A stretch of 64,000 nucleotides of DNA from an uncultured Thermoleophilaceae bacterium. GTDB taxonomy: Bacteria > Actinomycetota > Thermoleophilia > Solirubrobacterales > Thermoleophilaceae. The first letter of the stretch is position 1. Every line of letters begins with the position of its first letter. The notes below the pieces were generated by a model. The model had not been told where the DNA came from. It ran no database searches and worked only from the letters and a program-made list of their open reading frames with translations. Below are positions 2,612 through 58,294 of this stretch, in pieces. The stretch spans positions 149,577 through 213,576 of the forward strand of contig CAWDLI010000016.1 in the NCBI GenBank assembly GCA_963803245.1, given 5' to 3'. A program made the position numbers and the translations under genes.

Positions 2612-3934
2612 ATGAAGAAGTACCACCTCACCACGTTCGGGTGCCAGATGAACGAGCACGACTCCGAGCGGATGAAGGGCATGCTCGACTCGCTCGGGTA
2701 CGCGGAGGTGGACGAGCGCGCCGCCGCAGACCTGATCCTCTTCAACACCTGCTCCATCCGCGAGAAGGCGGACACCCGGCTGGTGGGCCACCTCGGCGAG
2801 GCCAAGCGCCTCAAGACCGAGGACCCCAGTCGCGTGGTGGGGGTCGGCGGCTGCTGGTCGCAGTCGGTGAAGGAGGGAGTGTTCGAGCTCTTCCCGTTCG
2901 TGGACGTTGCGTTCGGGCCCGGGCAGGTGCACAGGCTGGCCGAGTTCCTCACGAGCGACAGCCTGAGCGCCCAGGGTTACTTCGAGTTCGAGGGCTTCAC
3001 CGGGCACCTCCCGATGAAGCGCGGTCGCGAGTTCCAGGCCTGGGTCCAGATCTCGGTGGGCTGCAACTGCGCGTGCTCCTACTGCATCGTGCCCTCCACG
3101 CGAGGGCGCGAGGTCTCGCGCCCGCTCGCGGAGCTCCGGGCCGAGGTGGAGCGGCTTGCCGCCGACGGCGTTCGCGAGGTCACGCTCCTCGGCCAGAACG
3201 TCTGCTCCTACGGACGCGACCTGCCACGGGGAGAGAAGGCGACCTTCGCCGAGCTGCTCGCGGAGGTGGACGCCGTGGAGGGCATCGGGCGGATCCGCTA
3301 CACGAGCCCGCACCCGAAGGACATCCGCGAGGACGTGATCAGCGCGCACGTGGAGCTGCCCTCGGTGTGCGAGCACATCCATCTGCCGCTCCAGTCGGGC
3401 TCGACGCGGATCCTCAAAGCGATGCGCCGCACCTACGGCCGCGAGCGCTACCTCGACCGGGTGGCCATGATCCGTGAGCGGGCACCCGACTGCTCGCTCA
3501 GCACGGACATCATCGTGGGCTTCCCCGGCGAGACCGACGAGGACTTCGAGGAGACGATGGCGGTGGTGGACGAGGTGCGCTTCGACTCCGCGTTCACCTT
3601 CGCGTTCTCCCCGCGGCGCGGCACCGAGGCGGCCACGCTCGGCGGACAGGTGGCGCATGACGTGAAGGGCGAGCGCATGGAGAGGCTCGTCGACACGGTC
3701 CAGCGCCACGCCACAGAGCGCGCGCAGCGGTTCGTTGGGCGCACCATGGAGGTGCTCGTGGAGGGACCCTCGCGGAACGACGCCGCGCGGCTGCGCGGGC
3801 GCACCCGGCACAACAAGACCGTGAACTTCGCCGGCCTGGCAGAGCCGGGGGAGCTTGCGCAGGTGGAGATCGCCTCGGCCACGAGCACCACGCTCGCGGG
3901 CGAAGAGGCGTTGCTCGCCCGCCTCGCCGGCTGA
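2612..3934 (+). CDS. miaB: tRNA-i6A37 methylthiotransferase MiaB
   Basis: MKKYHLTTFGCQMNEHDSE N-terminus, radical-SAM CNCACSYC motif and a TRAM-like C-terminus. The 2069..2611 part of the track ORF overlaps rny and is not coding. Confidence 0.9.
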   Translation: MKKYHLTTFGCQMNEHDSERMKGMLDSLGYAEVDERAAADLILFNTCSIREKADTRLVGHLGEAKRLKTEDPSRVVGVGGCWSQSVKEGVFELFPFVDVAFGPGQVHRLAEFLTSDSLSAQGYFEFEGFTGHLPMKRGREFQAWVQISVGCNCACSYCIVPSTRGREVSRPLAELRAEVERLAADGVREVTLLGQNVCSYGRDLPRGEKATFAELLAEVDAVEGIGRIRYTSPHPKDIREDVISAHVELPSVCEHIHLPLQSGSTRILKAMRRTYGRERYLDRVAMIRERAPDCSLSTDIIVGFPGETDEDFEETMAVVDEVRFDSAFTFAFSPRRGTEAATLGGQVAHDVKGERMERLVDTVQRHATERAQRFVGRTMEVLVEGPSRNDAARLRGRTRHNKTVNFAGLAEPGELAQVEIASATSTTLAGEEALLARLAG

Positions 3935-4812: not shown

Positions 4813-5715
4813 GTGGACGTGATCGCCCTGTTCGGGCCCACCGGGGTGGGCAAGACCGCGGTCGCCATCGCGCTGGCCGAGCGGCTTCGGGCGTCGGGCG
4901 AGGACCCGGTGGCGGTGTCGGCGGATGCGTTGCAGGTCTATCGGGGACTGGAGTTGCTCAGCGGCGCCGCGGACGCGCGGGAGCAGGCGCGGCTCGAGCA
5001 CCGGCTGCTCTCGTTCGTGCCGGTCGGCGACACCTTCTCCGCCGGGGCCTTCGCCGAGCGGGCGCGGCCCGAGATCGACGCTGCGCTGGCCGCGAGCCGG
5101 CGTCCGCTCGTGGTGGGCGGCACCGGTCTCTACCTCCAGGCGGCGCTGACGGACCTCGAGCTGCGGCCGCCGCCGGAGGACGGCATCCGGCGGCGCCTCG
5201 AAGCCGATCTGGCCGCGCGTGGCGCTGCGGCCCTCCATGCGGACCTCGTCGCGCGCGACGCGCGCGCGGGCGGGGCGATCGAGCCCGGCGACCGCACCCG
5301 GGTCCTCCGCGCTCTCGAGCTGCTGGAGATGGGTGAGGACCCTGCGCCCTCCGGGGAGCGGTCCGAGCTCTGGACCGCTCGTCTGCGCCACCCCACGGTC
5401 CTGTGCGGCCTCGTGATGGACCGGGAGGTCCTGTACGAGCGGATCGACGAGCGGGTGGAGGCGATGGTCGCGGCGGGCGCGGCCGAGGAGGTCCGGCGCG
5501 CCGACGCCGCCGGCGCGTCGCGCACCGCCCGCGCCGCGCTCGGCTTCGAGGAGCTGCTGGCCGGCGACGTCGAGGCGATGAAGCGGCGCACGCGCAACTA
5601 CGCGAAACGCCAGCTCACGTGGATGCGGCGGCTCCCGGCCGTTCACACGATCGACGTGACGAGCCGCGACGCCGACGGCGCCGCCGCCGAGATCGAGCGA
5701 CTCGCCCGTGGGTAG
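4813..5715 (+). CDS. miaA: tRNA dimethylallyltransferase MiaA
   Basis: P-loop FGPTGVGKTAVAIALAERL and overall MiaA-like sequence. Sits in the miaA-dapF-hflX synteny. Confidence 0.9.
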   Translation: MDVIALFGPTGVGKTAVAIALAERLRASGEDPVAVSADALQVYRGLELLSGAADAREQARLEHRLLSFVPVGDTFSAGAFAERARPEIDAALAASRRPLVVGGTGLYLQAALTDLELRPPPEDGIRRRLEADLAARGAAALHADLVARDARAGGAIEPGDRTRVLRALELLEMGEDPAPSGERSELWTARLRHPTVLCGLVMDREVLYERIDERVEAMVAAGAAEEVRRADAAGASRTARAALGFEELLAGDVEAMKRRTRNYAKRQLTWMRRLPAVHTIDVTSRDADGAAAEIERLARG

Positions 5716-5726
5716 AGTGCCGCGCC

Positions 5727-6575
5727 GTGCGCTTCGAGAAATGGCAGGCGCTCGGCAACGACTACGTGATCGTGGACGAGAACGAGCTTCCCTTTCCCCT
5801 GACCCCGGGTCGGGTGCGCGCGCTGTGCGCGCCCCACACCGGGATCGGCTCGGACGGCATCCTCCTCCTCAGCCGCGACGACGAGCCCGGCTACGCGGCG
5901 AGCCTGCGGATCTTCAATCCCGACGGCTCGGAGTCCGAGCTCTCGGGCAACGGCGTGCGCGAGGCGGTGCTCTACCTGCGCCGCAACGGCTGGGTCGACG
6001 AGGACAGCTTCTCGGTACGCACCGCGGCGGGCGAGATACGCCCGCGCATCACAGGGCCCGACACCTGCACCGTCGGCATGGGAACCGCCCAGCTCCGCTC
6101 CGAGCGCGACTTTCCCAGCGGCGGTGAGGACGGCACGGGCGTGATCGAAGCGGACGACAGGGAGTTCGCCTTCCGGTTCGTGCAGGTGGGCAACCCGCAG
6201 TGCTCGATCGAGCTGGAGGAGGGTCTGGAGGACCTGGACCTCGCGCGCTACGGCGCCCCGATCGAGCGGCACGAGTGGTTCCCGCGGCGCACGAACGTCT
6301 CGTTCTGGACGCGGACGGGCGAGCACGAGATCCGTGCGCGCATCTTCGAGCGCGGGGTGGGGGAGACCATGTCCTCGGGCACGGGGGCCTCCGGCGCCGC
6401 CGTGGCCGCTGTCCTGGGCGGCTTGGAGAGCCCCGTGACGGTGCTGCTCGACGGCGGCCGGCTCGAGGTGGAGGTGGGCGAGGACATGCAGGTGAACCTG
6501 ACGGGCTGGGCGGTGCCGGTGTACCGCGGCGAGCTGAGCGACGAGCTGGTGGGGGCCATCCGTGAGATCGAGTAA
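5727..6575 (+). CDS. dapF: Diaminopimelate epimerase homologue with Ser at both catalytic Cys positions (S73, S217)
   Basis: GTG 5727. Carries the DapF motifs GNDY, IFNPDGSE, VGNPQC and FERGVGET. It reads LSGNG (TCG 5943..5945) and SSGTG (TCG 6375..6377) where DapF has CGNG and CG(S/T)G. Confidence 0.85.
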   Translation: MRFEKWQALGNDYVIVDENELPFPLTPGRVRALCAPHTGIGSDGILLLSRDDEPGYAASLRIFNPDGSESELSGNGVREAVLYLRRNGWVDEDSFSVRTAAGEIRPRITGPDTCTVGMGTAQLRSERDFPSGGEDGTGVIEADDREFAFRFVQVGNPQCSIELEEGLEDLDLARYGAPIERHEWFPRRTNVSFWTRTGEHEIRARIFERGVGETMSSGTGASGAAVAAVLGGLESPVTVLLDGGRLEVEVGEDMQVNLTGWAVPVYRGELSDELVGAIREIE

Positions 6576-7719
6576 ACGCCTGGAGCTGCTGCCGCCGTAC
6601 CTGTTCGCCGAGCTGGAGCGCAAGATCACGGCGAAGAAGGCCGCCGGCGTCGACGTGATCAGCCTCGGCATCGGCGACCCGGACACGCCGACGCCACCCG
6701 AGGTGGTGGCCGCGCTCGCGCGAGCGGCGTCCGACCCCGGCACCCACCAGTACCCGTCGAACCGCGGGCGCCCGGAGCTGCGCGAGTCGCTCGCGCGCTT
6801 CTACGCGCGGCGCTTCGGCGTGGAGCTCGACCCGGCCTCCGAGATCGTGCCGGCCCTGGGCGCCAAGGAGGCGGTCTTCAACCTCAACCTCGCGTTCCTG
6901 GACCCCGGTGACGCCGCGCTTGCCGCGGATCCCGGCTATCCCGTCTACACCGGCGGACCGCTGCTGGCGGGCGGCGAGGCCGTGCTGATGCCGCTGCTGC
7001 CCGAGCGCGGCTTCGCTCCCGACCTGGAGGCGGTGGCGCCGGCGGACCGCGGCCGTGCCCGCCTGATGTTCCTCAACTATCCGAACAACCCGACCGGTGC
7101 GGTCGTGCCCGACGGGCTCTTCGAGGAGGCGGTCGAGTTCGGACACCGCCACGACGTGCTGATCGTGCACGACGCGTCCTACACGGAGACGACCTTCGAC
7201 GGCTACGTGGCCCCGAGCTTCCTCGAGACGCCGGGGGCGCGCGAGGTGGGCATCGAGGTGTTCTCGCTCTCCAAGGGCTGGAACATGACCGGCTGGCGCA
7301 CCGCGGCGGTGGTGGGGAACGCGGAGGCGGTCGAGGCCTACTGGCGGCTGAAGACGAACATCGACTCGGGCATGTTCGAGGCGGTTCAGCTGGCCGCGGC
7401 GGCCGCGCTCGAGGCCGGCCCGCCGGCCGGGATGACCGAGGTGTACGCCCGCCGCCGCGACCTCGTGTGCGGGGCGCTCGCGGAGATCGGCGTGGACGTC
7501 ACGCCCCCGCGCGGCACGATCTACGTCTGGGCGCCGGTGCCGGCAGGGCACGACTCCGCCTCGTTCTGCGAGCTGGTGCTCGAGGAGTCCGGGGTGGTGG
7601 TCTCCCCGGGCGGCGCCTACGGCCCGAACGGAGAGGGGTTCTTCCGGATCTCGCTCACCGTGCCGGACGAGCGCCTGGCCGAGGCCGTGGACCGGCTCCG
7701 ATCGAACATGGGGGGCTGA
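6562..7719 (+). CDS. dapL: PLP aminotransferase, LL-diaminopimelate aminotransferase-like
   Basis: LPPYLFAELERKI N-terminus, GDPD motif and PLP-lysine motif SLSKGWNMTGWR. Overlaps the dapF 3' end by 14 nt. Confidence 0.65.
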   Translation: MRSSKRLELLPPYLFAELERKITAKKAAGVDVISLGIGDPDTPTPPEVVAALARAASDPGTHQYPSNRGRPELRESLARFYARRFGVELDPASEIVPALGAKEAVFNLNLAFLDPGDAALAADPGYPVYTGGPLLAGGEAVLMPLLPERGFAPDLEAVAPADRGRARLMFLNYPNNPTGAVVPDGLFEEAVEFGHRHDVLIVHDASYTETTFDGYVAPSFLETPGAREVGIEVFSLSKGWNMTGWRTAAVVGNAEAVEAYWRLKTNIDSGMFEAVQLAAAAALEAGPPAGMTEVYARRRDLVCGALAEIGVDVTPPRGTIYVWAPVPAGHDSASFCELVLEESGVVVSPGGAYGPNGEGFFRISLTVPDERLAEAVDRLRSNMGG

Positions 7720-7723
7720 GGCG

Positions 7724-8437
7724 GTGCACTACTGCGGCGTCGTGCCGCTCCAGGGCGCACTCCAGCTGGCGGTGCTCGAGGAAGTGCGCACGGCCGAGCC
7801 GCCGATCCGGCTGAGCGCGCTGTTCTTCGAGCCGGGTAACGCCGAGCAGGTGGCTGCGGAGCTCCGCGCCCTGAGCGACGTGGTGCTTGCGATCGGCGCC
7901 CCGCTCTCGAGCACCGGCGACGGCACGCCGCGGGCCACCGACACGTTGCTCGCCGCACGCGGCGTGACACCCCAGGCGCCCAACGCCGAGCTGGTGCGCC
8001 TGGCAGGCCTCCTCGACGGCATGGCGGTCTATCGCCCAGAGGAGCACGCCGAGGAGAGCGGTCCCGTCGGCGAGGGCGCCTACCGGGCGTTTCCGCTCTT
8101 CGAGACGAACGCCGACGGCGTCTTCTGCTCCCTCCAGGGCCGGAGGCTCCCGGCCAAGCGCCACCCGCTGGGCATGCAGCTGCGCATCGGCGAGCTCGCG
8201 GGCGACCACGTGGTCGACGAGGGCGGCGACCTCTGGCATCGCCGGATCGAGGAGCTGGACGCCGCGGCCTGCGCCCTCTGCGCCCACCGCTATGCCGTCG
8301 GGCACGCTTCGTGGGTGGGAGCGCCGGAGGACGGGGTGATCGTCCTGCCCGGCTCCTCGCTGCCCAACGAGTTCCCACGGGCGGGCGTGCTGCCCCCGGT
8401 GGAGCGCCTCCAGCTGCCACCCGTCACGCACGCCTAG
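7724..8437 (+). CDS. Conserved hypothetical protein, DUF429-like (predicted RNase H fold)
   Basis: Starts 4 nt after dapL. The motif pattern AIGAPLS, R..D.LL, FETNADG and ELDAAACAL resembles DUF429 as I recall it. The function is unknown. Confidence 0.45.
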   Translation: MHYCGVVPLQGALQLAVLEEVRTAEPPIRLSALFFEPGNAEQVAAELRALSDVVLAIGAPLSSTGDGTPRATDTLLAARGVTPQAPNAELVRLAGLLDGMAVYRPEEHAEESGPVGEGAYRAFPLFETNADGVFCSLQGRRLPAKRHPLGMQLRIGELAGDHVVDEGGDLWHRRIEELDAAACALCAHRYAVGHASWVGAPEDGVIVLPGSSLPNEFPRAGVLPPVERLQLPPVTHA

Positions 8438-8447
8438 ACTTGAAGAG

Positions 8448-9767
8448 ATGGATCGAGGCCGCAACGGCCGCAACAGCGAGACTCGCTACGGCGAGGGCAT
8501 CCGCAATCGCAGGGCGCGCCAGCGCGCGTTCCTGATCGGCGTCACCCCCGGCGAACCGGACCTGAGCGAGCTTCGCGAGCTCCTGCGCACGGCCGGCGTG
8601 GCGGTGGCGGGGGAGATGGTGCAGCGCCGCGAGCGCCCCGATCCGGACCGCTACCTCGGGCGCGGCAAGCTGGAGGAGGTCAAGGCCGCCGTGAAGGAGT
8701 CGGGCGCCAACCTCGTGGCGTGCGACGACGAGCTGCTGCCGCGCCAGGAGCGCAACCTCGAGCAGGAGCTCGACGTGCCGGTGATCGACCGCACGGCGAT
8801 CATCCTCGACATCTTTGCCGACCATGCCGGGTCGGCCGAGGGCAAGCTCCAGGTCGAGCTCGCACAGCTCGAGTACAACCTCGCGCGCATGCGCGGGCTC
8901 TGGACGCACCTCGAGCGGCTCGGAGCCGGCCGTATGGACGGCGGCATCGGCACGCGCGGACCGGGCGAGTCCCAGATCGAGACGGACCGCCGGCTGGCGC
9001 GCGACAGGATCTCGCAGCTGCGTCGCCGGCTGCTCCGCACCAAGGCGTCCCGCGGCACGATGCGCCAGGAGCGCGAGCGCGCCGGCCTTCCGACGGTGGC
9101 GCTCGCCGGCTATACGAACGCGGGCAAGTCCACGCTCCTGAACGCGCTGACGGGCGCGGACGTGGGGGTGCGCGAACGCCTCTTCCACACGCTCGACCCC
9201 GCCACCCGCTCCTTCGAGATCGCCGGCCGCACCTACCTGCTCACGGACACGGTCGGCTTCATCCGGAAGCTGCCGCATCAGCTCGTGGAGGCGTTCTCGG
9301 CCACGCTCGAAGAGGCGCTCGGCGCCGACCTCATCGTCCACGTGGCGGACGCGTCGGTGGGGGAGGCCGAGCTGCACGAGATGCTCGCCGCCGTGGACGA
9401 CGTGCTCGACGAGATCGGCGCGGGCGACCGGCCGCGCGTGCTGGTCCTGAACAAGGTCGACCTCCTGGACGACGAGCAGCGCCGTGAGCTGTCGTTCCGC
9501 TTCCCCAAGGCGGTGCAGGTGTCGGCCGCCCAGGGCGAGGGCCTCGAGGGCCTGCGCCACGCGGTCGAGGCGCACTTCCTCAGCAGCCTGCTGCCCATGG
9601 AGCTGCTCGTGCCCTACTCGGAGGGCGGCAGCCTTTCGGAGCTGCACGAGCTCGCCGGGGACCTCGAGCGTGAGGACACCCCGGCCGGCGTGCTCGTCAA
9701 GGCACGCGTGCCGGCCGCCGCGGTGCAGCGGTTCGAGCGCTTCGCGCTCAACGGGCGCCAGGCGTGA
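8448..9767 (+). CDS. hflX: GTPase HflX
   Basis: HflX N-domain ([26 protein letters not shown]) and G motifs [14 protein letters not shown] and NKVD. Confidence 0.9.
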
Positions 9768-10195
9768 TCCTCCGCTACCGGCGGCTGGCCCGCGAGGCGA
9801 AACCGCCCTCGCGCGCGCACGACGGCGACGCCGGCTTCGACCTCCACGCGGTGGAGCCGGCCTCGATCGAGCCCGGACGCAGAGCCAGCGTGGGCACCGG
9901 CGTGGCGGTTGCGATCCCGGATGGCTACGCGGGGCTCGTGGTCCCGCGCTCGGGCCTGGCCGCGCGCCACGGGATCTCGGTCGTGAACGCCCCCGGGCTG
10001 ATCGACGCGGGGTACAGGGGCGAGCTGCGGGTGCTGCTCATGAACGGGGATCCCGACCAGACCTTCGACGTCGCGCCGGGGGACCGCATCGCCCAGCTGG
10101 TGCTGGTGGCGGTGGAGAGCCCGGAGCTCGAGGAAGTGGCCGAGCTCGACCTCACGGTTCGCGGCGAGGGCGGCTTCGGCTCGACCGGTCGCTGA
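9764..10195 (+). CDS. dut: dUTP diphosphatase
   Basis: dUTPase motifs [25 protein letters not shown] and [14 protein letters not shown] overlap with hflX. Confidence 0.9.
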
Positions 10196-12799: not shown

Positions 12800-13527
12800 G
12801 CCGGGGCCTCCACGATGACCACCGTGCTGCCCACGTAGTCGCTCGTGGCCGGCACCTGGCGGCGCCCGGCCGGCACGAGCCCTGCCTCGGCGGCCTCGCG
12901 CTCGAGCTCGTCCGCGCTCACCGACTCGAGCACCACCGTGTTCATCTCCTCGGTCAGCTCGCCGGTGGGGGACACGAGCTGGCGCAGGCGGTCCACCGCC
13001 ACGCCGCGTGACTCCTCCCGCACGTCCACTGGCCGGCTCGAGAGCACCCAGCCCTCGACCTCGGCCACGTCGGGAAGCGGCGGCAGGGCGTCGGCGGGTG
13101 GAACGGTCTCGAACGGGTCGGCCAGCGCGGCCCCGAAGCGCGCGCCCGGACCGAGGTGCTCGCGCACGCGCGCCATCAGAGCCAGTCGTCCCGGGCGCCC
13201 GCCGAGCAGTTGCACCACCTGCATGGCGGCGAGCGCGAAGCCGAACCGGCGGCCCAGGGCCAGCGACCGCGCGTCGGCGGCCATGCTGTCCACTCGCAGG
13301 CCACGCTCCCGGGCGCGTCGCGCGAGCTCGGCCACCAGCTCGGCGTCGGCGTCCACCGCGGTCACCTCGTGACCGCGCTCCGCCAGGTCGAGGGCCACCC
13401 GGCCGGTGCCGCAGCCGATGTCGAGCACCGGTCCCGGGGCGGCTCCGGCGAGCTCGCGCCAGAGGCCGAGGTCGGCGGCGTAGGCGGCGCACTCCACGTC
13501 GTGCCACGCGACCGCCGTGGACCTCAC
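12796..13527 (-). CDS. Class I SAM-dependent methyltransferase
   Basis: Motif I VLDIGCGTGRVALDLAERGHEVTAVD. 243 aa. GTGA overlaps with murT upstream and gatD downstream. Confidence 0.75.
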   Translation of the reverse strand: MRSTAVAWHDVECAAYAADLGLWRELAGAAPGPVLDIGCGTGRVALDLAERGHEVTAVDADAELVAELARRARERGLRVDSMAADARSLALGRRFGFALAAMQVVQLLGGRPGRLALMARVREHLGPGARFGAALADPFETVPPADALPPLPDVAEVEGWVLSSRPVDVREESRGVAVDRLRQLVSPTGELTEEMNTVVLESVSADELEREAAEAGLVPAGRRQVPATSDYVGSTVVIVEAPA

Positions 13528-14879
13528 GCCGACCACCTGGCCACGAGCCCGCGCCGGGACAGCAGGTCGCGCAGCTCGAGGAGGGCCGTGTACGTGGGCA
13601 GGGCGTACAGCCGCGAGCCCACGGCCAGGTCGAGCGCCGTGTCCAGCGAGTCGCCGAGGTCGCGCTCCACGGCGATCTCGGTGTCCAGCTCCGCATACTT
13701 GAGCCGCACCGCCATCTCCTCGGCGCGCGTGCCCGAGCACGTGATCCGGCGGACGCGGCCGCGGAGCAGCTCGAAGTCGGCGTCCCAGATCCAGGACACG
13801 TCGCGGCCGTCGGCGATCCGGTCGTTGAGGGCGATCCAGAGGTCCAGCGAGTCGTCCTCGAGCGTGAGCGTTCGCAGCACCTCGTTGGCCCCCGCCGGGT
13901 TCTTGATCAGGAGGATGGACAGCTCCCGTCCGCCGATGGCGATCGTCTCCACGCGCCCGAACGCGCCGCTGAACGACTCGAGCGCCTGGCCCGCCGTCGC
14001 AAGTGGCACGCCCAGCTCGAGCGCGGTGGCCACGGCCGCGACGGCGTTGTAGACGTTGTAGAGCCCGGGCGCCGGGAGGCGCAGCGAGAGCTCGCCGCTC
14101 GGAGTGCGCAGCTCGATCCGGGAGCCCGACATGCCCTCGAGCTCAACGCGCGTGGCGGCCACCTGGGGGCGCGGGCGCTCGCGCCCGCAGCCCGGGCAGC
14201 GGTAGCGGCCCAGATGTCCCAGGTAGACGGCGTCGTAGATGTAGGCGGTGCCGCAGTTGCGGCAATGCTTCGAGTCGGCGGCGTGCTGCAGCTCGGGGAG
14301 CGCCTGGCCGTCGTCCTCCAGGCCGAAGTAGGTCACTCCCTCGCGGTCGCGGCCAAGGTCGGCCACGAGCGGGTCGTCGGCGTTGAGCACGAGCGCCCGC
14401 GGCGCGTCCGCGCCGGCCAGCAGATCCGCCCAGCGGTCGGCGAGCGACTCGAGCTCGCCGTAGCGGTCGAGCTGATCGCGGAAGAGGTTGGCCAGCAGCA
14501 GCAGTCGCGGACGCAGCTCATGCGCCACGGCGGGCAGCCAGGCCTCGTCGACCTCGAACAGCCCGATCTGCCCGCGCGTGCGCCCGGCGTCGAGCAGCGC
14601 CGTGGCCACTCCCCACGACATGTTCGAGCCGGCCCGGTTGTGCACCACCGGACGGCCGCCGCTGTCGAGGGCCGCGGCCACCATCGCGGCCGTGGTGGTC
14701 TTGCCGTTCGTGGCAGAGATGAGCACGGACCCCTCGTCGAGCCCGGTGGCCATCCGGCGCAGCGCGCGCGGCGACAGGGCGAGCAGCAGGCGCCCGGGCG
14801 CCGTCGTGCCACCACTGCGTCCGAGCCTACGGCTCACGGCCCGCAGGAGGCGGGCCAGGGCGCGTGCCGGGCCGTGCAT
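13524..14879 (-). CDS. murT: Lipid II isoglutaminyl synthase, Mur-ligase subunit MurT
   Basis: Mur-ligase P-loop ATNGKTTTAAM, MurT-type Cys4 ribbon CRNCG...CPGCG and a DUF1727-like C-terminus. Confidence 0.85.
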   Translation of the reverse strand: MHGPARALARLLRAVSRRLGRSGGTTAPGRLLLALSPRALRRMATGLDEGSVLISATNGKTTTAAMVAAALDSGGRPVVHNRAGSNMSWGVATALLDAGRTRGQIGLFEVDEAWLPAVAHELRPRLLLLANLFRDQLDRYGELESLADRWADLLAGADAPRALVLNADDPLVADLGRDREGVTYFGLEDDGQALPELQHAADSKHCRNCGTAYIYDAVYLGHLGRYRCPGCGRERPRPQVAATRVELEGMSGSRIELRTPSGELSLRLPAPGLYNVYNAVAAVATALELGVPLATAGQALESFSGAFGRVETIAIGGRELSILLIKNPAGANEVLRTLTLEDDSLDLWIALNDRIADGRDVSWIWDADFELLRGRVRRITCSGTRAEEMAVRLKYAELDTEIAVERDLGDSLDTALDLAVGSRLYALPTYTALLELRDLLSRRGLVARWSA

Positions 14880-37038: not shown

Positions 37039-38717
37039 AGCGGCGGCAGGCGCTCGGCGAGCCGCGCCCCGAGCGCGACCAGGCCGAGCAGGAGCACCGA
37101 CCCGAACAGCACCCACCCGGGCCAGAAGTACCCCTCCCCGGCCGCGAGCCAGACGCCGACGACGGTCAGGTTCACCAGGCCGAGCGCGCCCGCAAAGAGC
37201 GTGAGGTTGCGGTGCCCGGCCGGCTGTCCGGCCCTCTGCGTCGGATTGCCCGCCACGAGCCAGGCATCGAGCGCCGCCACCAGGCCGAGACCCAGCAGCG
37301 GCCACACGATCCAGTTCGACGGTGTGCCCGTGAGCCACCAGATCAGCACGAGCAGGGCGGCCACGGCCCCGAGCGGCGCCAGTCGCAGCCTGAGGTGGCG
37401 CCTGCGCCGCGCGTCACGCTCGGCGGCCGCCGCCTCGGGCAGGCCGCGTGGACCCGCGTCCGGGGCCGTACCGGGCGCCGTGAGCGGAATGCGGGCCAGC
37501 ACCCGGGTTCCGTCGCCATCGGCGCTCTCGATCGCCAGCGTCCCCTCCAGGGCCTCCACCCGGTCCTCGAGGCCCTGGAGCCCGGTGCCGGACCCAGCCT
37601 GCACGCCGCCGACCCCGTCGTCGCGCACCTCCACGGCCAGCCAGCCGTCCGCGACCGTGGCCCCCACCCAGGCGCCCGTGGCGCCGGCGTGCTTGGCCAC
37701 GTTGGCGAGGCTCTCGGAGACGATGAAGTAGGCGGCCGCCTCCACCTCGTCGGGCAGCCGCTCCTCCGGACGGGCCACGATCGTGGCCGGCACGCTCGAC
37801 CTGGCCGCCAGGTCCTCGAGTGCCGCGCCGAGGCCGCGGTTCGTGAGGATCGCCGGGTGGATGCCGCGGGCCAGGTCGCGCAGCTCCTCGAGCGCCAGCC
37901 GGGCCTCCTCGCCGGCCTTGCGGACCAGGTCGCCCGTGTCGTCCGAGCGCTGCTCGGCCATCCGGAGCGTCAGCGCCAGGGACACGAGCCGCTGCTGGGC
38001 TCCGTCGTGGAGGTCGCGCTCGAGCCGGCGGCGCTCCGCGTCGGCGGCGGCGATCACGCGGGCACGGGAGCCGCGCAGCTCGCTCACCTGCGCCGTCAGC
38101 TCCGGATCGGTGCTGGAGCCGAGCAGCAGCTCCGCGAAGCGGGCGTAGAGCCGGCCCAGGCCGTTCAGGGCCGGCAGGCCCACCAGCAGCAGGGCGGCGC
38201 CGAGCGGCATCAGTGCGACGGCCGCGAGGAGCGAGTCCACCTGCCAGATGCCGAGCTCGATGCCGTCCGGCACCGCCCAGTACCAGGCGGGGGCCACCAG
38301 GGCGCCCAGCCCGGCGGCGAGGATCACCGTGGTGAGGATGAAGCTCACCACCCCGAGCGGGAACTGGAGCAGGAGGTAGAGCAGGTCGCGCCAGGTGGCG
38401 GGGTCCGACAGGAACGCCTTGAGCCGCTCCCAGTGCCCCTCGCGCGGCAACGGGCGGTAGGGCGAGGCGATCTCGACCCCGAGCAGCGCGTCGACTAGCC
38501 GCCGCTCACCCATGGCGAGCCAGCGCGACGCGACGATCACGCCGATGAGGATCGGGATGCCCACCGTGACCACGGCGAGCCCCACGCCGACCGCGATGCC
38601 GGTCACGAGGAAGGCGAACTCGAGCTGGCCGAGCGGGAGCGCCAGCAGCAGATAGGCGATGCGCGTGTAGGTGCGCGCGTCGACGATCTGGGCCGCTAGA
38701 CGAGCCATCCGCGGCAT
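37035..38717 (-). CDS. Membrane sensor histidine kinase (HisKA_3/NarL-type), no cognate regulator in window
   Basis: ERRRLERDLHDGAQQRL H-box and an HATPase domain. N-terminal multi-TM sensor region and an extra C-terminal TM region. The start (38717 or 38708) is uncertain. Confidence 0.8.
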   Translation of the reverse strand: MPRMARLAAQIVDARTYTRIAYLLLALPLGQLEFAFLVTGIAVGVGLAVVTVGIPILIGVIVASRWLAMGERRLVDALLGVEIASPYRPLPREGHWERLKAFLSDPATWRDLLYLLLQFPLGVVSFILTTVILAAGLGALVAPAWYWAVPDGIELGIWQVDSLLAAVALMPLGAALLLVGLPALNGLGRLYARFAELLLGSSTDPELTAQVSELRGSRARVIAAADAERRRLERDLHDGAQQRLVSLALTLRMAEQRSDDTGDLVRKAGEEARLALEELRDLARGIHPAILTNRGLGAALEDLAARSSVPATIVARPEERLPDEVEAAAYFIVSESLANVAKHAGATGAWVGATVADGWLAVEVRDDGVGGVQAGSGTGLQGLEDRVEALEGTLAIESADGDGTRVLARIPLTAPGTAPDAGPRGLPEAAAAERDARRRRHLRLRLAPLGAVAALLVLIWWLTGTPSNWIVWPLLGLGLVAALDAWLVAGNPTQRAGQPAGHRNLTLFAGALGLVNLTVVGVWLAAGEGYFWPGWVLFGSVLLLGLVALGARLAERLPPL

Positions 38718-38829
38718 CAGGCTATGGACAGCGCCCGCGCGTGGCCAGGGGGCGACCCGGTGGGCCCGTGGTGTGGGTACCCGCACCCGGCGCGGCTCTG
38801 CGACGGGGCCGCGTGCGACCATTCCCGCC

Positions 38830-40275
38830 ATGCGCCCGGCGGCGTCGCACGTACGCGGGGTGGTCGCGGCGCTGGCCGCGGCCGCGCTCATCTCGGTCGC
38901 CGCCGACAACCTCGGCGTGCCGCGCCCCCAGCCGGTCGTGGTTGCCACAGCGCTTTCGGCCGAGAGCTCCGAGGCGTTCCCGGCCCGTGCCCGGGTGCGC
39001 GCCGCCCGCCGCTTCGTGGCCAGGCGCGCCGGCGTCCGCTCGTTCGCCCTGATCGACTCGAGTGGACGGGTGTACGGCTACGCCCCGCGCAGGACCTACG
39101 TGTCGGCGAGCGTGACCAAGGCGATGCTGCTGGTGGCCTACCTGCGCCACATCGGACGGCGCCCGCCGACCGCGGAGGAGAAGGGGCTCCTCGGCCCGAT
39201 GATCACCGTCTCCGACAACGACAGGGCCGACGGCGTGTACGCCCGCGTGGGTGACGCAGGCCTCCTGCGGGTCGCGCGGCGGGCGCACATGCGCCACTTC
39301 GCCGCCGCCGGCTACTGGGCATCCGCCCGCATCACCGCGCTGGACCAGGCGCGCTTCTTCCTGCGCGTGGACCAGATGGTGCCGAAGCGCAACCGGGCCT
39401 ACGCCCGGAGGCTGCTCGCCTCGATCGTGTCGTACGAGCGCTGGGGCTTCTCCCGCTACGCCGCGCGCGCCGGCTACCGGGCGTTCTTCAAGGGCGGCTG
39501 GCGCAGCACGGCCTCCGGCCGGCTCGTGCACGAGGTGGCGCTCTTCCAGCACGGCCGCACCAGGTTCGCGATGGCGGTGCTCAGCGACGGCAATCCGACT
39601 CACGATTACGGCACGGAGACCCTGCGCGGCGTGGCCGCCCGCATCTTCGACAGAGGCCCGAAGCCGAGCGCCCACCCGGCCGCGACCCGTACGGCGCTGC
39701 GCCGCGCCGGCCTGGAGGACGTGCTCGAGCGCGCCCCGGGCATTCGCGTGGACCTGGCCTACGGGACGGCCGGCAACCTCACCGGCCGGCCGCTGCCCGG
39801 CTACTGCCGCCGGTGGGCCTACCTGATGGAACCCGCCGCTCGTGACCTGGCGCGGGTCCAGCGCGGGCTCCGGCGCCACGGCCACGGCCTCCTCGTGCGC
39901 GACGCCTACCGCCCCGCGCGCGCCTCGCGCGCGCTCGTCCGCTGGGCGCGCCGCAGCGGTCGCCCGGAGCTCGTGGGCACCTACATCGCGCGCCGGAGCA
40001 GGCACAACCTGGGCAGCGCGGTGGACCTGACGCTCGTCCGGCTGCGCGACGGGCGGAGGCTGCGGATGGGCACGGGCTACGACAACCTGGGGCCACGTGC
40101 GCACACGCTCGCGGCCCGCGGCCGTCCCCTGCGCAACCGCCTGGCACTGAAGGCGGCGATGGAGCGCCACGGCTTCACCAGCTACTGGCGCGAGTGGTGG
40201 CACTTCGAGCACCGCCTGCAAGGCGCCGCTCACCTCGACCTCACCCTCGGGTGTCCGCGGCCCGACCCGCGATAA
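38830..40275 (+). CDS. Fusion protein: class-A beta-lactamase-fold domain + VanX/DdpX-type D-Ala-D-Ala dipeptidase domain
   Basis: N-terminal hydrophobic segment. Then SVTK (SxxK), SDN and KGG motifs. After a linker come SRHNLGSAVDLT and EWWHFE, the M15D zinc-dipeptidase signatures. Confidence 0.75.
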   Translation: MRPAASHVRGVVAALAAAALISVAADNLGVPRPQPVVVATALSAESSEAFPARARVRAARRFVARRAGVRSFALIDSSGRVYGYAPRRTYVSASVTKAMLLVAYLRHIGRRPPTAEEKGLLGPMITVSDNDRADGVYARVGDAGLLRVARRAHMRHFAAAGYWASARITALDQARFFLRVDQMVPKRNRAYARRLLASIVSYERWGFSRYAARAGYRAFFKGGWRSTASGRLVHEVALFQHGRTRFAMAVLSDGNPTHDYGTETLRGVAARIFDRGPKPSAHPAATRTALRRAGLEDVLERAPGIRVDLAYGTAGNLTGRPLPGYCRRWAYLMEPAARDLARVQRGLRRHGHGLLVRDAYRPARASRALVRWARRSGRPELVGTYIARRSRHNLGSAVDLTLVRLRDGRRLRMGTGYDNLGPRAHTLAARGRPLRNRLALKAAMERHGFTSYWREWWHFEHRLQGAAHLDLTLGCPRPDPR

Positions 40276-49956: not shown

Positions 49957-52014
49957 GTGAAAGAAGTACCTCGCTTGGGCCGAACGGGCCGGGTGCTCTG
50001 GACGTTCGTTGCCCTCGTCATGGCCGCATACGCGGCCCATACCGCGTTCCACATCGGCTCGGGGTGGTTTTACGAGGGCCTGATGTACAGCGGGCTCATC
50101 GGGGCCGCGGCCGTTGCCTGCTTCGCGCGCGCGTGGCGCGTGGAGCGCGAGCGGGCCGCCTGGACGGCCATGGGCGTGGGTCTCGCGGCGTGGATGGGCG
50201 GCGAGATCTACTGGACCGTGGTCCTCAACTACGAGGACGTGGTGCCGGTGCCCTCGCTCGCGGACGGCCTCTACTTCACCTTCTACGGCGCCAGCTACGT
50301 GGCACTCGTGCTGCTGATTCGCGGGCGCATGCAGAAGTTCCGGTCGAGCCTCTGGCTGGACGGCGCCATCGCGGCCACCGCGGTTGCGGCGTTCGCCGGC
50401 GCCGTCGCCTTCGGGCCGATCGTCGAAGCAACGGTCGGGGACCCCGTCACCGTCGCGGTGAATCTCGCGTACCCGCTTGGCGACCTCCTTCTTCTGAGCC
50501 TCGTCGTGGCCAGCTTCGCGCTCTCGGGCTGGCGTCCGGACCGTGGCTGGATCCTCATGGGGCTCGGCCTCGGGCTGATGGCGGTCGGCGACGGCGTGTA
50601 CCTGTTCCAGGCCGCCGAGGGCACGTACGTGGAGGGCACCATGCTGGACGCCCTCTGGCCGGCCGCCGCGCTGCTCGTGGGTGCCGCCGCCTGGCAGCCG
50701 GTCGGCACGCGCGTGGCTCCGAGGCTCGAGGGCTGGCGCGTGGTGGCGATTCCGGCGGTCGCGGGCCTCGCTGCCGTGGGCCTCCAGACCTACGACCACT
50801 TCCAGCGCATCTCCGACGGCGCGCTGGTGCTCGCCGCCGCGACGCTCGTGCTCGTGACGGTGCGGATGGCCCTGACCTTCCGCGAGAACCAGCTGATGAT
50901 CCGGCACACGGAGCACGAGGCGAACACGGACGCGCTCACGGGACTGCGCAACCGGCGCAGCCTGATGACCGACCTCGAGCACGAGCTGGAGCTCGCGACC
51001 GCGGAGCAGCCGCGCGTGCTGGTCCTCTTCGACCTGGACGGCTTCAAGCAGTACAACGACGCCTTCGGGCACCTGGCCGGGGACGGGCTCCTGGCGCGGC
51101 TCGGATCGCGCCTCGAATGGGTCGTCGTCGGCCAGGGCCGCGCCTACCGGCTGGGCGGGGACGAGTTCTGCGTGCTCTTCACTCCGGGCGCCGCGGGCGT
51201 CGACCCGCTGCTGGCCTCCTGCTCGGCCGCGCTCACCGAGAGCGGCGAGGGGTTCTCCATCGGGGCCTCCCACGGCGCCGTGGTGGCCCCGGGCGAGGTC
51301 GAGGACGCCACGGAGGCCCTGCAGCTCGCGGACCGGCGCATGTACGCTCAGAAGGGCGGTCACAGGATGTCGGCCGGGCGCCAGTCGCGTGACGTGCTCC
51401 TCAGCACCCTGACCGAGCGCGAGCCACAGCTGGGCGAGCACCTTCACGACGTGGCGAAGCTGGCGCTGGCGGTCGGACGCGAGCTGGAGATGGGCCCCGA
51501 GGAGCTCGACGAGGTGGCCCGCGCGGCGGAGCTCCACGACGTCGGCAAGGTGGCGATCCCCGACGCGATCCTGAGCAAGCGCGGTCCGCTCGACGAGGCC
51601 GAGCAGAGCTTCATGCGCCGTCACACGATCATCGGGGAGCGGATCCTGCTTTCGGCGCCCGCCCTGCGCCCCGTCGCGCGGCTGGTGCGCTCGAGTCACG
51701 AGCGCTGGGACGGCGCCGGCTATCCCGACGGCCTGGCGGGCGAGGACATTCCGCTCGGGGCCCGGATCGTGTCGGTGTGCGACGCGTTCGACGCCATGAC
51801 CACCGACCGCCCGTACCGGGAGAAGATCTCCGAGCGCGAGGCCCTGGATGAGCTGATCGCGTGTGCTGGCACTCAATTCGACCAGTGCGTGGTCGACGCC
51901 TTCGCTCGCGCGCTGGCGGCGCTCCGGCCCGACGAGGCCGAGGTTACGGCCGAGACAGGGAACGGATCTGCGCCATCACCTCCTTCGGCGCGGTATCGAG
52001 CCTCCTCGCGGTGA
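49957..52014 (+). CDS. Membrane-anchored GGDEF diguanylate cyclase fused to HD-GYP phosphodiesterase
   Basis: About 8 TM helices, then DALTGLRNRR...RLGGDEFCVLF (GGDEF), then HDVGKVAIPD...HERWDGAGYPDGL (HD-GYP). Confidence 0.85.
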   Translation: MKEVPRLGRTGRVLWTFVALVMAAYAAHTAFHIGSGWFYEGLMYSGLIGAAAVACFARAWRVERERAAWTAMGVGLAAWMGGEIYWTVVLNYEDVVPVPSLADGLYFTFYGASYVALVLLIRGRMQKFRSSLWLDGAIAATAVAAFAGAVAFGPIVEATVGDPVTVAVNLAYPLGDLLLLSLVVASFALSGWRPDRGWILMGLGLGLMAVGDGVYLFQAAEGTYVEGTMLDALWPAAALLVGAAAWQPVGTRVAPRLEGWRVVAIPAVAGLAAVGLQTYDHFQRISDGALVLAAATLVLVTVRMALTFRENQLMIRHTEHEANTDALTGLRNRRSLMTDLEHELELATAEQPRVLVLFDLDGFKQYNDAFGHLAGDGLLARLGSRLEWVVVGQGRAYRLGGDEFCVLFTPGAAGVDPLLASCSAALTESGEGFSIGASHGAVVAPGEVEDATEALQLADRRMYAQKGGHRMSAGRQSRDVLLSTLTEREPQLGEHLHDVAKLALAVGRELEMGPEELDEVARAAELHDVGKVAIPDAILSKRGPLDEAEQSFMRRHTIIGERILLSAPALRPVARLVRSSHERWDGAGYPDGLAGEDIPLGARIVSVCDAFDAMTTDRPYREKISEREALDELIACAGTQFDQCVVDAFARALAALRPDEAEVTAETGNGSAPSPPSARYRASSR

Positions 52015-55997: not shown

Positions 55998-57077
55998 CTA
56001 CCGCACCCGGAAGCCCTCGCCCGACAGCCTGTCGATGTCGTTCGAGAGCCCCACGAGGAACAACAGGATCACCAGCATGAAGCCGACCACGCCGGCTCGC
56101 TCCATCACGCTGAACGGCACCGGCTTGCGACGGATCTTCTCGACGATCGCCCAGAAGATGTGGCCGCCGTCGAGCGGCAGGAACGGGAACAGGTTCACGA
56201 TCGCAAGGGAGAGCGAGATGATCGCGAGGATCCACACCGTGTCGGCGATGTCGCTCAGGATCGTCTGCCGGGTGACCTCGTAGGAGCCGACCACGCCGGA
56301 GATCTCCTTGCGGTCCTGGGAGTCGAGCAGGCGCGCTGGGAGCTTGAGCGTCTCCTTGCTGATGAACCAGAAGGCGTCGGCGGTCTGGTCGAAGCCCTCA
56401 CTGATCGAGAGCGGGTCGCGCGGGCCGGGAGCGTAGGCGAAGCCGAGCCGCGTGCGCTCCGCCGCCGGGTCGTAGATCGGCGTGATCTCCACCGTCTTCC
56501 GCTCCCCGTCGCGGACCACCGTGAGGGACACCGGCTCGGTGGCCTTGCAGCCCTTCTTGGGCGGGTCCTGCGCGCACGTGTGCGAAGCGATCCGCTGCGA
56601 GAGCTGGGTCGGGGTGCCGCCGCGCCCGTCCACCTCCACGAGCCGGTCACCGGAACGCACCACGCCCGCCGCCGGATAGCCGCGCTCCACGGCCGCCACG
56701 TCCCGCGTGGTCGTCTCCGGGCCGATGAGGGTGAAGAACACGAACAGCAGCACGAAGGCGAGGATGAGATTCACGGCGGGCCCGGCCGCGATGACCACGA
56801 TGCGCTTCCAGACCGGCTGGGAGTAGTAGGCCCGGGTGCGAACCTCGTCGGGGAGGTCCTCGTCCGGGTTCATCCCGCTGATCTTCACGTAGCCGCCGAG
56901 CGGGATCGACCCGATCGCGTACTCAGTCTCCCCCACCTTCTTGCGCGCGATCAGCGGCGGGAAGAAGAGCGAAAAGCGCTCCACGCGCATGCCGACCGTC
57001 TTGGCCGCCGTGAAGTGCCCGAGCTCGTGGAAGATCACGAGCAGGGAGAACCCCACGAACGCCAGCGCCCAGCTCAC
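55998..57077 (-). CDS. rseP: Site-2 (M50) intramembrane metalloprotease RseP/Rip1-like
   Basis: HELGHF zinc motif, a PDZ-like insert and NLFPFLPLDGGH. Sits in dxr-rip synteny. Confidence 0.85.
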   Translation of the reverse strand: MSWALAFVGFSLLVIFHELGHFTAAKTVGMRVERFSLFFPPLIARKKVGETEYAIGSIPLGGYVKISGMNPDEDLPDEVRTRAYYSQPVWKRIVVIAAGPAVNLILAFVLLFVFFTLIGPETTTRDVAAVERGYPAAGVVRSGDRLVEVDGRGGTPTQLSQRIASHTCAQDPPKKGCKATEPVSLTVVRDGERKTVEITPIYDPAAERTRLGFAYAPGPRDPLSISEGFDQTADAFWFISKETLKLPARLLDSQDRKEISGVVGSYEVTRQTILSDIADTVWILAIISLSLAIVNLFPFLPLDGGHIFWAIVEKIRRKPVPFSVMERAGVVGFMLVILLFLVGLSNDIDRLSGEGFRVR

Positions 57078-58249
57078 GCGCTCACACCCTCGGCCAGCCG
57101 GCGCGTGAGCTCGCGCGCCTCGGAGTCGGCCGTGTAGAGGTCGGAGAAGTGGCGCACGGGGCGCGCGGGCAGCTCGGCGAGCGCGCGGTCGATCAGGCGG
57201 GCGATGTCGAGGAACCCGATCTCACCTTCGAGGAAGGCGTGCACGGCGATCTCGTTGGCCGCGTTGAGCACGCAGGGCGCGGTGCCCCCGGCGCGTGCCG
57301 CGTCGCGCGCGAGGGCGAGGCAGGCGAAGGTGTCGGAGTCGGGAGCCTCGAACGTCAGCGAGCCCAGCTCCACCAGGTCGAGCGCCGGCACGGGCACGTC
57401 GGAGCGCTCCGGGTGGTGAAGGGCGAACGAGATCGGGACGCGCATGTCCGGGTACCCCATGTGCGCCAGCGACGCGCCGTCGTTGAGGTGCACCAGCGCG
57501 TGGATGATCGACTGAGGGTGCACCACGACGTCGATGCGGTCGTAAGGGACCCCGAACAGGTGGTGGGCCTCGATCAGCTCCAGCCCCTTGTTCATCAGGG
57601 TGGCGCTGTCGATCGTGATCTTCCCGCCCATGTCCCACGTGGGGTGTGCGAGGGCCTGCTCGCGGGTGACGCCGCGGAGGTCGGCCTCCCTCCTCCCGCG
57701 GAAGGGTCCGCCGCTGGCGGTGAGCACCAGGCGGTCGATCGTGCCCGGGCGCTCTGAGGAGATCAGCTGGTAGAGCGCCGAGTGCTCGGAGTCCACAGGG
57801 ATGATGCGCGCGCCCGTGGCCTCCGCGAGGGCGCTCACGAGCTCGCCTCCCACCACGAGGCTCTCCTTGTTCGCGAGCGCGAGGTCGATGCCCTCCCCCA
57901 GCGTCGCGATCGTGGGCCCCAGCCCGGCCGACCCGACCAGCGCGTTGAGCACCAGGTCGCAGTCTCCGCCCGTGATCAGCTCCACGAGGCCCTCCGCCCC
58001 GCCGAGCACCTCGCCGTCGGTCCAGGCCTCCGAGGCGCGCGCCGCCGCGTCCTCGTCGGCCAGGGCTATGCGCTCGACGCCGAACGCGTGCGCTTGCTCG
58101 AGCAGGGGCTCCCAGCTGGAGCCGGCGGCCAGTCCGACCACCTCGAGCTGGTCGCTCCGCTCGACCACGTCGAGTGCCTGGGTTCCGATCGAGCCGGTGG
58201 ACCCGACGATCACGATCTTGCGCACCCGGATGAGTCTAGGACGCCGCAT
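57074..58249 (-). CDS. dxr: 1-deoxy-D-xylulose 5-phosphate reductoisomerase
   Basis: IVIVGSTGSIGTQALDV, NKESLV and DSEHSA motifs. The start is ATG 58249 or GTG 58225. Confidence 0.9.
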   Translation of the reverse strand: MRRPRLIRVRKIVIVGSTGSIGTQALDVVERSDQLEVVGLAAGSSWEPLLEQAHAFGVERIALADEDAAARASEAWTDGEVLGGAEGLVELITGGDCDLVLNALVGSAGLGPTIATLGEGIDLALANKESLVVGGELVSALAEATGARIIPVDSEHSALYQLISSERPGTIDRLVLTASGGPFRGRREADLRGVTREQALAHPTWDMGGKITIDSATLMNKGLELIEAHHLFGVPYDRIDVVVHPQSIIHALVHLNDGASLAHMGYPDMRVPISFALHHPERSDVPVPALDLVELGSLTFEAPDSDTFACLALARDAARAGGTAPCVLNAANEIAVHAFLEGEIGFLDIARLIDRALAELPARPVRHFSDLYTADSEARELTRRLAEGVSA

Positions 58250-58294
58250 AAAGGGCGAGTTAGGATTGGGCGCGGCCGGGCAGGCCGGCTCGCC

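Follow-up and report, generated by a model that had tools for sequence, protein, structure and literature searches.

A DapF orthologue with serine in place of both catalytic cysteines across Solirubrobacterales: a candidate thiol-free diaminopimelate epimerase

Can a diaminopimelate (DAP) epimerase do without the two thiols on which its known chemistry depends? DapF is the textbook case of cofactor-free and metal-free removal of an alpha-proton (pKa about 29), carried out by a thiolate/thiol pair. We identified a dapF gene that raises this question in a 64,000-nucleotide stretch of DNA (hereafter the window; G+C content 71%) from an uncultured Thermoleophilaceae bacterium (assembly GCA_963803245.1, contig CAWDLI010000016.1, positions 149,577 to 213,576). 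The gene lies at 5727..6575 on the plus strand, runs from a GTG start at 5727 to a TAA stop at 6573-6575, and encodes a protein of 282 amino acids with serine at both catalytic positions. An earlier reading of the letters and translations (the sequence-only reading) had described a syntenic DapF homologue in which both catalytic cysteines are changed to serine, located beside an aminotransferase that forms LL-DAP, and this description holds. It had proposed three options for the protein, namely a DAP-binding pseudoenzyme, an enzyme with altered chemistry or a natural Ser/Ser epimerase, and the evidence presented below leans to the last of these.

The protein is a member of the DapF homologous family by profile, fold, ligand residues and genomic position, and it lacks the Cys73/Cys217 pair that defines the two-thiol, cofactor-independent epimerase class (EC 5.1.1.7). 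It matches TIGR00652, the NCBIfam DapF equivalog model, over its full length, with 198.8 bits (cut-off 114.65) and residues 1-271 aligned to profile positions 1-269 of 270, and contains two PF01678 (DAP_epimerase) domains (139.6 bits). HMMER pairwise alignments to four solved DapF structures, from a cyanobacterium (9mro), Arabidopsis (3ejx), Acinetobacter (5ha4) and Pseudomonas (8qzy), place S73 on the cysteine of E(M/Q)CGNG and S217 on the cysteine of ACGTG. The alignments have high posterior confidence and are free of gaps near these columns. Codon 73 (5943..5945, plus strand) and codon 217 (6375..6377, plus strand) both read TCG, so translation and alignment bear out the serines and the coordinates that had been given for them. 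The profile alignment proposed at that time as a check likewise finds serine, not cysteine, in both catalytic columns. Misaligned catalytic columns are ruled out by the four independent pairwise alignments together with the full-length profile match.

The AlphaFold2 model of the protein (predicted local distance difference test score 96.4, predicted TM-score 0.92) shows the two-domain DapF fold with one central helix per domain. S73 and S217 directly precede and N-cap helices 74-86 and 218-230, respectively, just as the canonical cysteines do. In length, in its pseudo-symmetric two-domain fold, in its DAP-binding residues and in the placement of catalytic residues at the N-termini of the central helices, the protein resembles canonical DapF of the TIGR00652/PF01678 type (Cys73/Cys217 in Haemophilus influenzae and Escherichia coli, Cys83/Cys221 in Corynebacterium glutamicum). 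The best 26 Foldseek matches in the Protein Data Bank (PDB) are all DapF or the DapF-like O-ureidoserine racemase, with TM-scores of 0.83-0.89 for the best, and they include the engineered C73S and C217S variants of H. influenzae DapF (2q9h and 2q9j, ranks 6 and 12). These variants carry serine in the same fold, at one catalytic position each. They are single laboratory changes, introduced to make catalysis slower and to capture the enzyme in its open form (PMC12039745), whereas the window protein has both serines, has them naturally, and has them among co-evolved neighbours.

The double replacement extends well beyond this genome. In an alignment of 201 Thermoleophilaceae and Solirubrobacterales sequences, S73, S217, Y13 and S192 are each present in 201/201, Q158 in 200/201, and C114 and W261 in 195/201 each. 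A survey of relatives had been recommended in the sequence-only reading, and its outcome is thus uniformly Ser/Ser. The best 120 homologues in a collection of 5.8 billion proteins (74-100% identity) all carry SGNG and SGTG, and the named ones derive from Thermoleophilaceae metagenome-assembled genomes (MAGs). Also, the best 80 genome loci (60-88% identity) are Ser/Ser in 80 of 80 cases; they come from MAGs labelled Thermoleophilaceae, Solirubrobacterales, Solirubrobacteraceae, Solirubrobacter sp. and Conexibacter sp. Across these loci the two serines are written as TCG, TCC, TCA, TCT, AGC and AGT, and the use of six synonymous codons argues that the amino acid itself is conserved. Pairwise dN/dS (the ratio of nonsynonymous to synonymous substitution rates) of dapF among related loci is 0.13-0.4. 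Mean identity of their proteins to those of the window is 66% for dapF, compared with 65% for miaA, 67.5% for dut, 71% for hflX and 72% for the aminotransferase; dapF diverges at the rate of its flanking housekeeping genes. Overall, the Ser/Ser state is order-wide and maintained by selection, with neighbouring changes fixed alongside it.

We give almost no credence to an artefact, either an error of sequencing, assembly or annotation (true TGC codons, or a frameshift) or a decaying pseudogene, and found no point in its support. The open reading frame (ORF) is intact and of full length, the serines recur in independent assemblies under purifying selection, and in the rest of the window cysteine is encoded as usual, as in the radical S-adenosylmethionine (SAM) motif CxxxCxxC of MiaB. 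Conservation, turnover of synonymous serine codons and dN/dS rule out both sequencing error and a pseudogene.

The substrate pocket is retained around the serines. The DAP-binding residues N11, N64, G74, N75, N156/157, N190, E208, R209, G218 and T/S219 are invariant or at least 90% conserved in both the Ser/Ser and the Cys/Cys groups, and all are present in the window protein. It had been stated that the substrate-binding motifs are kept. This stands for the DAP-binding residues, which are intact, but not for GNPQC, where the canonical motif is GNPHC and the His-to-Gln change is clade-specific, nor for RTNVSF, which has serine in place of the usual glutamate.

Comparison of the remaining active-site columns with 26 Cys/Cys representatives, and with a second Ser/Ser clade described below, revealed further changes. 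Residue 13 in the GNDY motif (codon TAC, 5763..5765, plus strand, as are the codons that follow) is tyrosine throughout this clade and in 24/24 sequences of the second Ser/Ser clade; the Cys/Cys representatives have phenylalanine (16), tyrosine (8) or histidine (1). Residue 158 (CAG, 6198..6200) is glutamine where all Cys/Cys representatives, and also the second Ser/Ser clade, have the histidine of the GNPH motif (His159 of the two-thiol class). Residue 192 (TCG, 6300..6302) is serine where 23/26 Cys/Cys representatives have glutamate and the second clade has glutamine. The methionine found at position 72 in Cys/Cys enzymes is leucine in this clade and lysine in the second. Two non-catalytic cysteines of the canonical enzyme are lost as well: position 79 is glutamate or glutamine in this clade (E79 in the window) and isoleucine in the second, and position 222 is serine or threonine in this clade (S222 in the window) and cysteine or serine in the second. 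Judged from these columns, Y13, Q158 and S192 form a fixed clade signature that accompanies the serines.

The only cysteines left in the window protein are C34, C114 and C159, of which C34 and C159 also occur in Cys/Cys DapFs. Inspection of the sequence found no newly gained cysteine at a known active-site position. Residue 114 (codon 6066-6068) is valine or isoleucine in other DapFs, and its column presumably lies outside the residues that contact DAP in the H. influenzae structure. The clade-specific C114 is a candidate for a compensating role.

The genomic position of the gene is that of a canonical dapF. All members of the block lie on the plus strand. A miaB-like radical-SAM methylthiotransferase gene (2612..3934, recognized from its ORF translation and found upstream in related loci too) is followed by miaA, encoding tRNA dimethylallyltransferase (4813..5715; TIGR00174, 167.1 bits against a cut-off of 148.65), which is the upstream neighbour of dapF. 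Downstream are a class I/II aminotransferase gene of the DapL type (6562..7719), a gene for a weakly matching DUF429 protein (7724..8437; PF04250, 26.4 bits against a cut-off of 23), the GTPase gene hflX (8448..9767; TIGR03156, 417.3 bits) and, at the end of the block, dut for dUTPase (9764..10195), which follows hflX in related loci and whose orthologue in one of them (L081) has a Pfam dUTPase match. The order miaB-miaA-dapF-aminotransferase-hflX-dut is kept across the 80 related loci. An identical block in another actinomycete MAG (L087) contains a Cys/Cys dapF. Mycobacterium tuberculosis has the order miaA-dapF-hflX too. The canonical miaA-dapF-hflX position that had been read from the sequence is thus confirmed in the window and shared with Cys/Cys actinomycete loci, as is the linkage to the DAP pathway. 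This synteny rules out a paralogue, and it indicates that the window gene is the orthologue of canonical dapF.

The aminotransferase gene starts with GTG at 6562 and overlaps the dapF stop by 14 nucleotides, as had been noted. It stands next to dapF in nearly all 80 loci, and in most of them its start abuts or overlaps the dapF stop. Its earlier description as DapL-like is upheld barely at the subfamily level (PRK09276, 509.2 bits against a cut-off of 507) and not at the equivalog level (TIGR03540, 493.9 bits, below the cut-off of 593.25). In relatives that bear dapD and dapE the homologue may be a succinyl-DAP aminotransferase. Whether the enzyme is DapL or DapC, its predicted product is LL-DAP.

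Other genes at this locus are more variable. The DUF429 gene, which had been placed in the same operon, is indeed there, but it is not a conserved member. It occurs in only 13/80 related loci and has no NCBIfam match; we regard it as a lineage-restricted insertion, and its distribution rules it out as a core operon partner. In L081, a 77%-identical relative on a 4.18-Mb contig, a penicillin-amidase family gene (816 amino acids; 7539-9989) is located between miaA and dapF, and thus the miaA-dapF junction is not fixed. A Nudix hydrolase gene lies just downstream of dut in four Gaiellales-like and other actinomycete loci (L082, L085, L086 and L087) and not in the window, an arrangement worth recording only because RppH, which E. 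coli DapF binds and activates, is a Nudix enzyme.

Gaiellales-like loci, whose HflX proteins are mutually 63-67% identical, hold dapF in three catalytic states. One of them (L085) is Cys/Cys, with the motifs EACGNG and RACGSG, and its dapF is downstream of dapD and dapE. A second, from Gaiellales assembly GCA_036491365.1 (L086), is Ser/Cys (EVSGNG and QACGSG) within a dapD-dapE-dapF-aminotransferase operon. The third, from Gaiellales assembly GCA_044869695.1 (L082), is Ser/Ser (EFSGNG and LSSGSG) and has dapF followed by the aminotransferase. The occurrence of Cys/Cys, Ser/Cys and Ser/Ser forms at orthologous loci argues that the serine forms descended in place from the canonical enzyme, within DAP-pathway operons. 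The operons span 689-4569 in L086 and 4403-9952 in L085; dapE of L085 matches in two pieces, is a short call and may be frameshifted.

Ser/Ser proteins also occur far from this order. When 1.84 billion cluster representatives were searched exhaustively, a second, large group was recovered (AEKSGNG...TLASGSS) with 35-42% identity to the window DapF and TIGR00652 scores of 206-246 bits. Its named members belong to Methylomirabilota and Nitrospirota, and the others to unnamed metagenomic lineages. In a neighbour-joining tree, Cys/Cys sequences lie between this clade and the Thermoleophilia clade, and a few further isolated Ser/Ser sequences fall among Cys/Cys ones. The second clade probably represents an independent origin, and the tree is crude enough that the count of Ser/Ser origins is provisional. 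Both clades have serine in the two catalytic columns, Tyr13 and Pro65, and both have lost Met72 and Glu192. The second clade differs in having Lys72, His158, Gln192, an SGSS motif and another genomic context.

The second clade includes fusions of LysA to a Ser/Ser DapF, in which the LysA part scores 410 and 360 bits against TIGR01048 (cut-off 298). The two fusions, P0237 (757 amino acids) and P0259 (736 amino acids), are 46% identical and collinear over 738 amino acids, which argues that the architecture is inherited and not an accident of assembly. LysA consumes meso-DAP, and its fusion to a Ser/Ser DapF is expected if the Ser/Ser domain makes meso-DAP, that is, if this domain is active. P0237 has a short tandem duplication at the LysA/DapF junction, where HAHITP(Q/R)FRKYQALG occurs twice. 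A further protein from outside the window, P0218 (534 amino acids), joins a Ser/Ser DapF domain to a C-terminal SAM-dependent methyltransferase domain.

The organisms concerned are known for the product of this reaction. All Solirubrobacterales are reported to have meso-DAP as the diagnostic diamino acid of their peptidoglycan, which is of type A1-gamma in Conexibacter woesei (PMC3035278), and meso-DAP has been detected in Solirubrobacter whole-cell hydrolysates (PMC10722151). These reports indicate that the organisms make meso-DAP; MAGs labelled Solirubrobacter and Conexibacter carry Ser/Ser dapF. We searched the window and the related loci by tblastn with Cys/Cys DapF, DapD, DapE and LysA as queries. 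No second dapF, Ddh-like gene or lysA was detected in the window (30 further ORFs, compared with Pfam) or in approximately 1.7 Mb of related loci, which represent a small part of each genome.

Given these analyses, we suggest, with a probability of roughly 0.6, that the window DapF is a functional, thiol-free and hence oxidation-insensitive DAP epimerase. A natural Ser/Ser epimerase is favoured because Cys/Cys, Ser/Cys and Ser/Ser forms occupy orthologous loci, because purifying selection acts on a gene that has kept its ligand residues, because LysA-DapF fusions occur in the other Ser/Ser clade, and because the order has meso-DAP cell walls. The serines are invariant and have not drifted to alanine, glycine or threonine, which suggests that the hydroxyls matter. 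We see about an even chance that the fuller scenario is correct, in which epimerisation by two serines arose stepwise from Cys/Cys through Ser/Cys to Ser/Ser in Thermoleophilia and independently in Methylomirabilota- and Nitrospirota-type lineages, and in which the enzyme alone provides the meso-DAP for wall and lysine synthesis in abundant soil bacteria and resists oxidants and thiol-directed inhibitors.

What the analyses show is homology, the DapF fold, the identity of the catalytic columns, orthology, conservation and the genomic setting; the activity, mechanism and selective reason set out here are inferred. The thiol/thiolate pair would be replaced by two serine hydroxyls in a remodelled and conserved site (Y13, L72, S73, Q158, S192 and S217), and interconversion of LL- and meso-DAP would be retained through two-base 1,1-proton transfer, with Ser73 serving the L face and Ser217 the D face. 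Both serines cap the N-terminus of a central helix, where the dipole of the helix, together with closure and desolvation of the site, would help to form the alkoxide. A bound water could act as a relay. The enzyme would take LL-DAP from the translationally coupled aminotransferase and would supply meso-DAP to peptidoglycan and lysine. Its rate would probably be below that of the thiol enzymes. The turnover of wild-type DapFs ranges widely, from 58 s-1 in C. glutamicum (PMC5296763) to 0.15 s-1 in M. tuberculosis (table in PMC8142540), and thus a much slower enzyme may suffice. In C. glutamicum DapF, H2O2 causes the two catalytic cysteines to form a disulfide and thereby inactivates the enzyme (PMC5296763), a redox switch that is impossible in the window protein. 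A thiol-free site would be immune to this shut-off and could therefore confer a selective advantage, which is plausible in aerobic soil bacteria.

We found no report in the searchable literature of a natural Ser/Ser DapF, of DapF in Thermoleophilia, or of the kinetics of C73S/C217S enzymes; databases name the Ser/Ser proteins diaminopimelate epimerase without comment. A natural exchange of cysteine for a hydroxyl residue in a two-base scaffold does occur in the Asp/Glu racemases EcL-DER and MMP0739 and in trans-3-hydroxy-L-proline dehydratase. Unlike the window protein, these have exchanged one cysteine only, for threonine, and act as one-way racemases or as a dehydratase (PMC8142540). EcL-DER and MMP0739 also belong to a fold family different from that of DapF. 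Among the proteins found here, the Ser/Cys DapF of the Gaiellales locus L086 comes closest to these Cys/Thr enzymes. Non-thiol epimerisation of LL- to meso-DAP is also carried out by the Alr2-like DapF2, but this enzyme depends on pyridoxal phosphate (PLP) and has an unrelated fold (bioRxiv 10.1101/2024.10.14.618325).

Several considerations weigh against an active Ser/Ser epimerase, the chief one being that a double-serine enzyme is without biochemical precedent. We know of no enzyme of the DapF class that works with two serines, and removing the proton from a serine hydroxyl is far more difficult than removing it from a thiol. Single serine mutants of H. influenzae DapF reportedly retain small residual activity. 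The sequence-only reading had described Cys-to-Ser mutants as essentially unable to epimerise, which is stronger than the wording of the papers. These say that the exchange hinders or slows catalysis in DapF and its relatives, and not that it abolishes catalysis; crystallographers have employed it to capture the open forms (PMC12039745, PMC11602996). Cys-to-Ala does abolish the activity of C. glutamicum DapF (PMC5296763), and according to a 2021 review the only natural exceptions to the two-cysteine rule among cofactor-independent amino-acid racemases have one threonine and one cysteine and are one-way racemases or dehydratases (PMC8142540). We identified no obvious new general base, as Q158 replaces a histidine and adds none, and the Ser/Ser sequences behind our proposals are derived from MAGs and not from cultured strains. 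DapF activity can be dispensable, since E. coli without dapF grows normally (bioRxiv 10.1101/2024.10.14.618325). Also, a second route to meso-DAP, such as Ddh, a PLP-dependent DapF2 or a promiscuous racemase, could be encoded elsewhere in the genomes of the clade.

There are two other explanations, both of which we consider unlikely. The somewhat better placed of the two is that the protein acts in the DAP pathway with altered chemistry, as a one-way enzyme in the manner of the Thr/Cys racemase EcL-DER, with the help of, for instance, a metal, a relaying water or a protein partner, or on a related substrate or reaction, for example elimination or dehydration, or N-acylated DAP. The outcome of a single Cys-to-Thr exchange in related racemases (PMC8142540) is a precedent for it. 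The co-fixed Y13, Q158 (for His) and S192 (for Glu) around the site would fit it too, and the DapF superfamily contains non-thiol enzymes such as PhzF, a structural neighbour in the Foldseek search. However, none of the residues that hold the two ends of DAP has changed, so that the substrate is very likely still DAP, and the context of the aminotransferase and of the LysA fusions calls for ordinary LL-to-meso conversion. His158 persists in the second Ser/Ser clade, which shows that the change from His to Gln is dispensable.

Alternatively, and with slightly less probability still, the protein may have kept its fold and pocket without epimerising, and may bind DAP as a pseudoenzyme that serves as a sensor, scaffold or partner, in the way E. 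coli DapF partners RppH; meso-DAP would then come from Ddh, from an epimerase of the DapF2/Alr2 type or from a promiscuous racemase. Both mechanism-defining residues are gone, Cys-to-Ser hinders catalysis in this class (PMC12039745, PMC11602996), and a binding protein would be just as likely to retain the ligand pocket. The role of DapF with RppH is a documented non-catalytic one (PMC6061791; PDB 6d13 is among the Foldseek matches), and the existence of alternative DAP epimerases, with the growth of E. coli lacking dapF, adds to this (bioRxiv 10.1101/2024.10.14.618325). Set against it, the gene lies at the orthologous dapF position, no second copy was found nearby, and the gene is coupled to an LL-DAP-forming aminotransferase throughout the order. 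Ser/Cys and Ser/Ser forms are found in DAP operons or fused to LysA. The serines are invariant in 201/201 sequences, where a dead site would be expected to drift to alanine, glycine or threonine, and the gene evolves at the rate of its housekeeping neighbours. A natural Ser/Ser epimerase is the explanation that we prefer over both.

The window contains several other genes of interest. A MurT-type Mur ligase (Mur_ligase_M and MurT_C domains; 13524-14879, minus strand) is encoded among minus-strand neighbours, accompanied in related loci by a GATase_3 (GatD-like) gene. This pairing suggests amidation of D-iso-glutamate in the peptidoglycan stem peptide, encoded close to the dapF block in every Thermoleophilia locus that was examined. 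An ORF of up to 534 amino acids (38671-40275, plus strand) combines a beta-lactamase-family region, whose own stretch scores under the Pfam cut-off, with Peptidase_M15 (VanX-like D-Ala-D-Ala dipeptidase); its 5' end overlaps a sensor kinase gene on the opposite strand, and the true start is probably further downstream. A protein of 685 amino acids with GGDEF and HD-GYP-type (HD_5) domains (49957-52014, plus strand) is likely a cyclic di-GMP turnover enzyme. An ORF of up to 755 amino acids (57782-60049, plus strand) encodes a luciferase-like monooxygenase with a C-terminal SCP2 sterol-carrier domain; it overlaps an antisense ORF (57074-59803), and its boundaries are putative.

DapF is an antibacterial target of thiol-reactive inhibitors of the aziridino-DAP class, and either outcome for the Ser/Ser proteins would have consequences. 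If they are inactive, a whole order of meso-DAP soil bacteria, together with members of other phyla, would use an unrecognised route to meso-DAP, and automatic annotation would be systematically wrong, as Ser/Ser proteins pass the DapF equivalog model. If the Ser/Ser DapF is active, the thiol pair would not be obligatory for cofactor-free epimerisation. The Cys/Cys, Ser/Cys and Ser/Ser enzymes at one locus would then provide a natural graded series for dissecting the role of each base, and the Ser/Ser form could offer an oxidation-proof epimerase for D-amino-acid biocatalysis.

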